DNA of 64,000 nucleotides from Escherichia coli (GTDB lineage: Bacteria > Pseudomonadota > Gammaproteobacteria > Enterobacterales > Enterobacteriaceae): assembly GCF_050320075.1 (NCBI RefSeq), contig NZ_CP190018.1. One strand, given 5' to 3'. The notes beneath the pieces were generated by a model. That model worked only from the letters and a program-made list of their open reading frames with translations. It made no database searches and was not told the DNA's origin. Of the stretch, positions 20,212 to 20,536 are shown piece after piece; the stretch's first letter is position 1; every line of letters begins with the position of its first letter. The translations under genes were made by a program, and so were the position numbers.

Positions 20212-20298
20212 AAATAAAAAAACCTGCTGGTGAGGCAGGTTCTTTTATTTACTATTTTCAGGCCCAACACCGCAGCCTGTGCAACATCGTGTTCCAAC
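20212..20298 (-). ncRNA. orzO: Candidate OrzO-like antitoxin sRNA
   Basis: Minus-strand promoter (-10 TATAAT as rc of 20305-20310, 17-nt spacer, -35 TTGCAA 20328-20333). Terminator hairpin 20221-20241 followed by U-run on the minus strand. Its 5' 20 nt are complementary, with one mismatch, to 20445-20464 in the zorO leader. Confidence 0.5.
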
Positions 20299-20327
20299 GA
20301 ACGAATTATAACCATCGGTGGACCCCG

Positions 20328-20355
20328 TTGCAATTAAGATAATGAGATTTATAAT
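20328..20355 (+). promoter_or_regulatory. Candidate sigma70 promoter of zorO
   Basis: -35 TTGCAA (20328-20333), 16-nt spacer, -10 TATAAT (20350-20355). Predicted TSS near 20363 gives a ~174-nt leader. Confidence 0.5.
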
Positions 20356-20536
20356 CCAGACGGTTGGGACGTTGCGCCGGATCGGACCAATTTTAAGTCC
20401 TGGCTACCGGACGGGTGGTGCTGCAGGTGGTGCCCTGATCCGGAGTGCAACATCGTGGTCCAACATACGTAAACCAGTATCGACAGGCAGTGTAAGGGTA
20501 AGGTGCTGGTGTTGCGCTCCTTAATAAGGAGAGCGG

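Follow-up and report, generated by a model that had tools for sequence, protein, structure and literature searches.

The window analysed here, a stretch of 64,000 nucleotides of Escherichia coli DNA, carries a zor/orz type I toxin–antitoxin module in single copy at positions 20212–20672, between yehL and yehK (Table 1). RefSeq leaves the module without annotation. Its flanks, with fragments of the yehL open reading frame on the left and yehK and yehI on the right, are concordant with the RefSeq annotation of E. coli strain M217, to which the 501-nt stretch holding the module is 100% identical; most of this stretch is present in about 3392 of 5426 complete genomes.

Table 1. Features of the zor/orz module, in window coordinates
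Feature	Position	Strand	Remarks
orz antitoxin sRNA gene, OrzP type, about 85 nt	20212..20298	−	+1 at 20298 to U-run past terminator
orz intrinsic terminator, G+C-rich hairpin between A- and T-runs	20221..20241	both strands	terminator scan; Rfam terminal stem
orz 5′ pairing region, +1 to +20	20279..20298	−	unpaired base +7 = A, complement of t 20292
orz promoter −10, TATAAT	20305..20310	−	17-nt spacer
TTGCAA, −35 of both divergent promoters (predicted)	20328..20333	palindromic	best −35 candidate for both
zor promoter −10, TATAAT	20350..20355	+	16-nt spacer
zor 5′ UTR, 174 nt	20363..20536	+	+1 at 20363; computed length equals the published 174-nt zorO UTR
EAP region, +73..+102	20435..20464	+	coordinates transferred from PMC5397157
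sRNA target in leader, +83..+102	20445..20464	+	unpaired base g 20458 (+96)
29-aa toxin ORF	20537..20626	+	MDTLTQKLTVLIAVLELLVALLRLIDLLK, same peptide as ZorO from the O157 O copy
zor mRNA terminator hairpin	20650..20672	+	GGGGGAATACCGTTTCCCCC followed by TTT; from sequence, paired in fold

Toxin and antitoxin genes

The antitoxin gene matches the Rfam family RF02083 (OrzO-P) over the whole model (20291..20216, minus strand; 101.3 bits against a gathering score of 60, cmscan), and the fold of its RNA has a z score of −3.5. The 5′ end of the sRNA is GUUGGAACACG, in which the V1 positions (+9 to +11) read ACG; V1 defines the paralogues and is GAA in OrzO and ACG in OrzP (Wen 2014). This 5′ end is identical in orzP of O157 and in the OrzPmg region of K-12. 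The sRNA terminator sits within an inverted repeat (I1, 20209–20253, with 19-nt arms that are 95% complementary) and reads as a terminator in either direction, because A- and T-runs flank the hairpin on both sides. The yehL start codon lies some 40 nt downstream of the repeat.

On the other strand, the zor gene follows the published plan of zorO. The zorO leader is 174 nt long, with a ribosome-binding site at +164 to +169 and an EAP region at +73 to +102 (Wen 2017, PMC5397157); in the window, AAGGAG at 20526–20531 occupies +164 to +169, coinciding with the published ribosome-binding site. The sRNA target lies 73–92 nt upstream of the ATG, as published for z3289/z3290 (PMC2887945). The peptide is the dominant protein variant, ZorO, which accounts for 72.5% of zor open reading frames (PMC11264685), and O157 ZorP differs from it by T3S. 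The terminator hairpin of the mRNA fails a simple terminator scan on the T-run criterion; the predicted zor transcript of about 310 nt agrees with reported species of 280 and 310 nt.

The yehL sequence beside the module is split into two overlapping open reading frames on the minus strand, 19027–20170 and 18345–19184 (173 aa and 216 aa), and in the identical strain M217 yehL is annotated as frameshifted and yehM contains an internal stop. Because yehL is split or frameshifted and yehM interrupted, the yehLMPQ neighbourhood appears to be decaying in the source lineage. Elsewhere in the window, two other structured RNAs match Rfam above gathering level on the plus strand: the Hfq-binding sRNA STnc490 (51396–51519, 143.9 bits) and a TPP riboswitch (43353–43449, 71.8 bits).

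Assignment to the P type

The initial annotation called the toxin gene zorO. This label holds for the peptide, which is identical to ZorO, and fails for the sRNA and its target, which are of OrzP/zorP type by V1 and by comparison with O157. Across 69 sites that distinguish the two O157 copies, 51 are P-like, 13 are O-like and 5 match neither. The P-like majority is strongest in the sRNA (21 P-like, 1 O-like), the promoters (13 and 1) and the target (7 and 0), which together are P-type at 41 of the 43 sites matching either O157 copy, with three further sites matching neither. The 5′ leader has 4 O-like sites, the coding sequence 3 and the 3′ UTR 2. The subtype is assigned here by V1 together with the best overall similarity, which is to the P copy of EDL933. 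The residue that makes the peptide ZorO-like, T3, is found in 8/8 of the other P-type copies with a translated peptide, O157's own excepted (the E. whittamii peptide also carries Q6R), and S3 is therefore a trait of the O157 lineage rather than of the P type. The module should be named zorP/orzP-type; this is the sole correction, and the annotation of the window is otherwise unchanged.

The anatomy is confirmed and is already published: the zor/orz literature covers the promoters, the start sites, the pairing region and the fact that an internal mismatch is tolerated. Neither the shared hexamer nor the single mismatch is peculiar to the source strain; both are strongly conserved and typical of the family. 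The anatomy, family membership, conservation and fixation of the mismatch were established directly for this module, and its start sites, the OrzO mechanism and the tolerance of a mismatch at +7 were taken from the literature. Overall, we are confident that the locus is a zorP/orzP-type module with divergent sigma-70 promoters on one TTGCAA −35, a native mismatch and a toxin–antitoxin pair that is expected to be cognate and repressing.

Two promoters around one hexamer

TTGCAA is its own reverse complement and lies 16 nt from the plus-strand TATAAT and 17 nt from the minus-strand TATAAT, as the initial annotation had it. Both promoters have perfect −10 hexamers and agree with consensus at 10/12 positions. 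The start sites of both zor mRNAs and both sRNAs have been mapped by primer extension (Fozo 2010, PMC2887945), and the published data are consistent with both promoters, so that the refuting outcome named in the initial annotation did not arise: the 174-nt UTR places the zor start at 20363 and the V1 numbering places the sRNA start at 20298, each 7 nt past its own −10 and the two 65 bp apart. Predicted −35 and −10 elements were boxed in Fig. 1A of Wen 2014. Further, a 2024 mSystems survey of 2439 loci lists TTGCAA as the −35 for 99.4% of Zor and 99.4% of Orz promoters and a −10 of TATAAT for 100% and 99.8%, respectively (PMC11264685 Table 3); because a single TTGCAA lies between the two −10s, its Zor and Orz −35 entries are one and the same hexamer. 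The zor/orz literature examined nowhere terms TTGCAA shared or palindromic and reports no −35 mutagenesis at zor/orz. Its role as the −35 is a prediction from the sequence that fits the published start sites.

Two lines of evidence support the paired arrangement. First, single promoter-like matches near the locus are no commoner than in shuffled sequence (2 found against 2.2 expected), but the joint pattern ATTATA-N16–18-TTGCAA-N15–17-TATAAT is expected 0.00 times (100 shuffles of the 64-kb window). Second, the frame is conserved. We compared 31 copies whose promoter region could be read: the window copy and others taken from ten E. coli genomes, E. whittamii and metagenome contigs. The metagenome scan gave 19 loci, and five anchor matches were without a readable promoter core (four cut off at the end of a contig or locus, and one, L013, described below). 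A scan of species-representative contigs with a neutral 24-nt anchor recovered the locus in E. whittamii only; elsewhere the locus is absent or the anchor differs. ATTATA-17-TTGCAA-16-TATAAT is present in 31/31 copies, including E. whittamii and the metagenome variants. Among the 12 distinct 51-bp sequences, 0/18 hexamer positions vary compared with 20/33 spacer positions (Fisher p = 1e-5), so that spacing is kept despite divergence of the spacer sequence, as functional −35/−10 pairs predict.

A divergent Escherichia-like metagenome contig (L015, 337–407) departs from this arrangement. By alignment, it has a 20-nt insertion at the palindrome; orz retains TTGCAA-17-TATAAT and zor gains a separate −35-like hexamer (CTTACA or TACACA). 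Because this contig splits the two promoters, sharing, which is the rule in E. coli, is not obligatory for the family. Its sRNA and target form a further covarying type, with a bulge. In L013, a metagenome contig 1025 nt long, unrelated coding-like sequence is joined to the part of the zor leader downstream of about +40, and promoter and sRNA are absent; it represents either a rearranged locus or an assembly chimera.

Does the shared −35 couple transcription of toxin and antitoxin?

In the proposed arrangement, two back-to-back sigma-70 promoters would fire from consensus −10s through one palindromic TTGCAA −35. Two sigma region-4 domains cannot sit on the same 6 bp. Two RNA polymerases would be unable to occupy the shared −35 together, and initiation at one promoter would transiently exclude the other. 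The same 6 bp serve as the predicted −35 of both promoters, and the upstream footprints of the two polymerases should, from the geometry, overlap as well, because the start sites are only 65 bp apart. Judged from RNA polymerase–promoter structure, steric exclusion at the shared −35 is plausible and would depend on occupancy. Exclusion would probably favour the antitoxin, because the orz spacer has the optimal length of 17 bp and the zor spacer has 16 bp.

There is a sizeable chance, a little short of even, that the promoters share the hexamer in geometry only and fire independently at low occupancy, with TTGCAA kept because each promoter needs its TTG. Overlap with an opposing promoter is in itself ordinary, occurring at about 14% of E. 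coli promoters, and interference between such promoters depends on their properties (Bendtsen 2011). In a study of bidirectional promoters, the two directions interfered little at basal levels: weakening one direction of five natural promoters did not raise the other, and interference was strong only when activity in one direction was made strong (NAR 2026 gkag028). The zor promoter of L015 is separable from TTGCAA, in keeping with independent firing. Other features of the locus argue against it. Both promoters have perfect −10s and 10/12 consensus positions; Orz sRNAs are abundant in exponential phase, their levels dropping in stationary phase (PMC2887945), so occupancy may not be low; and the 17/16 spacing never varies among the E. 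coli copies sampled, although their spacers have diverged heavily, which points to maintenance of a coupled geometry. The physical sharing of a −35 with a 17/16 asymmetry is not discussed in the zor/orz literature examined. With exclusion at the hexamer a plausible reading, this strict asymmetry around a physically shared −35 makes the locus a small natural system in which to ask whether polymerases at a toxin promoter and its antitoxin promoter exclude each other.

Pairing of antitoxin and leader

The single mismatch described in the initial annotation was reproduced: 20279–20298 (GTGCAACATCGTGTTCCAAC) and 20445–20464 (GTGCAACATCGTGGTCCAAC) differ solely at position 14, t 20292 against g 20458, a 19/20 direct repeat within 441 nt that is far beyond chance. 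In the duplex, A(+7) of the sRNA stands opposite G(+96) of the mRNA, giving 6(1)13 pairing with 19 bp over 20 positions. For the family, repression needs pairing of 15 continuous or 17 discontinuous nt, the first 18 nt of OrzO are enough for repression, and OrzO with an engineered +7 mismatch, 6(1)11, represses zorO fully (Wen 2014, PMC3919570). Because its 19 bp (predicted −30.8 kcal/mol) exceed the 17-bp discontinuous threshold, the window pair is expected to be fully cognate and repressing. Toxicity and RNase III-dependent repression by the sRNA have been demonstrated experimentally for zorO/OrzO only (Wen 2014), and we found no direct test of OrzP on zorP in the searchable literature; by extrapolation from the OrzO mutants, OrzP would repress the window zor mRNA. 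On the OrzO/zorO model, pairing with the leader would block translation and trigger RNase III-dependent decay.

The same leader segment would also be shut in cis by the 5′ end of the mRNA until the first 28 nt are removed. In full-length zorO mRNA, lead and T1 probing found the EAP region closed, and it is exposed once these 28 nt are gone (PMC5397157). The minimum free energy (MFE) fold of the window zor mRNA agrees: nt 1–5 pair with +98 to +102 and nt 9–14 with +84 to +89, such that +84 to +102 is closed by the 5′ end.

Both divergent transcripts start with GUUGG and contain GUUGC (mRNA, GUUGGGACGUUGCGCC, 20363–20380; sRNA, GUUGGAACACGAUGUUGCAC), and in the MFE fold the mRNA 5′ end pairs with the CCAAC and GCAAC segments of the target that the sRNA also binds. 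The cis-inhibitory 5′ end of the mRNA thus resembles the antitoxin seed in shortened form. Closure of the EAP region is published (PMC5397157); mimicry of the antitoxin seed by the mRNA 5′ end was not encountered in the zor/orz literature examined.

The mismatch at +7

Compared with the O157 pairs, the zorP–orzP copy on the yehL side has an identical sRNA 5′ end and target, including the t/g difference. The same A:G mismatch occurs in the P-type pair of E. whittamii, and in all it is present in 16/16 sampled P-type pairs. We searched 5426 genomes for compensated versions using 55-nt megablast queries with the variable base in the middle, where any seed must contain it. The natural target context occurs in 2864 genomes; for the natural sRNA side the count is 4681, which includes orz-only strains such as K-12. 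Compensated versions of both were found in 0/5426 genomes in this search, which requires an exact 28-mer and would miss a compensated allele with extra changes nearby. The +7 A:G mismatch is the ancestral, fixed and native state of the P-type pair.

Its energetic effect was estimated on bare 20-mers. The natural P duplex is predicted at −30.8 kcal/mol, close to the O (−29.6 kcal/mol) and Q (−30.0 kcal/mol) duplexes, and cross pairs fall between −14 and −21 kcal/mol; a compensated P duplex, made a perfect 20 bp by either substitution, would reach −35.1 or −37.5 kcal/mol. Across seven pair types, all cognate energies lie between −29.6 and −31.7 kcal/mol, bar the rare O′ variant at −24.1. In two further types, +7 is also unpaired (A:A and G:A) and the flanking positions +5, +6 and +9 to +11 covary. 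No sampled natural pair type forms a perfect 20-bp Watson–Crick duplex; each has a mismatch, a wobble or a bulge.

It is possible that repression is tuned by the mismatch. In its strongest form, this hypothesis holds that the mismatch is actively selected, because it caps duplex stability close to a fixed value, shapes RNase III cleavage or sharpens discrimination between paralogues in strains with two or three copies, and we regard such selection as tentative and on balance doubtful. Several observations fit it: one substitution would suffice for compensation and none was found among the 5426 genomes, the mismatch is kept across a species boundary in E. whittamii, +7 is unpaired with different bases in two other types while its flanks covary, at least one imperfection is present in every natural type, and the cognate energies, O′ excepted, cluster within −29.6 to −31.7 kcal/mol. 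Set against these, the energies apply to bare 20-mers only and the pair types sampled number only seven; three of them (O, O′ and L025) pair at +7; and P-type sequences are very alike, so fixation may reflect shared ancestry with weak selection on a tolerated site. This fixation is not discussed in the zor/orz literature examined. The pattern, a mismatch fixed in thousands of genomes and a sister species with no compensated allele found, leaves a clean and cheaply testable hypothesis.

Two other proposals were rejected. Unpaired +7 is not a universal rule of the family, as O, O′ and L025 pair there (A:U or G:U). A constraint from the cis fold does not explain conservation of G(+96), which the MFE fold places in an internal loop.

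The two features may be read jointly, with the shared −35 allowing only one of the two genes to initiate at a time on any chromosome copy and the never-compensated +7 mismatch tuning duplex energy. We consider the conjunction improbable, and it would have distinct consequences. The antitoxin would be favoured by the invariant 17- and 16-bp spacers; at the single-cell level, zor and orz transcription would be negatively correlated, and the frequency of cells that express toxin would depend on infrequent runs of zor initiation; and the +7 mismatch and its equivalents in other types would hold cognate duplexes near −30 kcal/mol, strong enough to repress and weak enough for orthogonality between paralogues.

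Regulator site and mixed pair as unlikely alternatives

It is very unlikely that TTGCAA is conserved mainly as a palindromic regulator site for both genes, or part of one, rather than as a −35. The hexamer is a perfect palindrome, which in O-type copies extends to ATTGCAAT, and the stationary-phase fall of Orz implies some regulation; however, the literature examined reports no regulator, the flanks of the hexamer differ between types, and the exact 17/16 spacing to two consensus −10s, together with mapped start sites, is what a −35 requires.

The initial annotation also raised the possibility that the mismatch marks a mixed toxin/antitoxin pair. This does not stand, as the mismatch is shared by O157 zorP/orzP and E. 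whittamii and fixed in thousands of genomes. That the pair is recombinant, with sRNA and target from different paralogues, is barely credible and was rejected after the O157, E. whittamii and diagnostic-site comparisons: a ZorO peptide beside a P-type sRNA and target, and the few O-like sites in leader, coding sequence and 3′ UTR, would fit it and a mixed pair does occur in the sample, but the window sRNA and target reproduce O157 orzP/zorP without a change, mismatch included, T3 is common to other translated P-type pairs and not foreign to the type, and L019, where the pair is truly mixed, shows 4 mismatches and −18.1 kcal/mol, compared with 1 mismatch and −30.8 kcal/mol in the window. L019 is a bat-gut co-assembly in whose first zor/orz copy the sRNA and promoter are P-type and the leader and target Q-type; this copy is either a real recombinant whose toxin would escape the adjacent antitoxin or an assembly chimera.

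Comparison with known systems

The closest relative is zorP–orzP of O157:H7 EDL933 (z3290 / sRNA-2; Fozo 2010, Wen 2014), which shares with the window the first 20 nt of the sRNA with V1 = ACG, the 20-nt leader target, the A:G at +7, the promoter frame, the 174-nt UTR and the position beside yehL. It differs in standing in a tandem P and O pair, where the window has a single copy, and in having S3 where the window peptide has T3, as in ZorO; the window has a few O-like substitutions in 5′ leader, coding sequence and 3′ UTR, and its orz-side spacer differs at 4 positions. The experimentally characterized zorO–orzO of EDL933 has the same architecture, toxin peptide, shared TTGCAA with 17/16 spacing, target position (+83 to +102) and EAP logic. 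Unlike the window sRNA, OrzO has V1 = GAA; its pairing is unbroken as far as +18, includes a G:U at +13 and lacks the mismatch at +7. Cross-pairing is predicted to be weak, at −21.2 kcal/mol for OrzO with the window target and −17.2 for OrzP with zorO, compared with about −30 for cognate pairs, and OrzP cannot repress zorO experimentally (Wen 2014).

OrzPmg, the orz-only locus of K-12 MG1655 (mSystems 2024), retains the sRNA 5′ pairing region, the terminator, the hexamers, the 17/16 spacing and the first ~30 nt of the zor leader, with a few substitutions in the sRNA body and the orz-side spacer. By contrast with the window, K-12 has lost the target, ribosome-binding site and toxin open reading frame by a deletion from near leader +33. 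The toxin-less zor promoter is still intact there (L003, 2501–2717).

Among other type I systems, tisB–istR-1 and shoB–ohsC likewise have an sRNA divergent from the toxin. The 5′ end of this sRNA pairs over 18–21 nt, at a standby site or close to one, within a 5′ UTR that is long and structured, and 5′ processing activates the mRNA. Their RNAs and toxins are unrelated to those of zor/orz, and tisB is under LexA control; for neither is a shared palindromic −35 reported in the literature examined.

Finally, the locus resembles overlapping divergent and bidirectional promoters (Bendtsen 2011; gkag028) in its opposed promoters, overlapping RNA polymerase sites and possible steric exclusion. The bidirectional class of Warman and Grainger has a shared pseudo-symmetric −10 region, close start sites and a −35 on each side (gkag028). 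The window falls outside this class: its −10s are separate (20305–10 and 20350–55), its start sites are 65 bp apart, and the element that its two promoters share is the −35.
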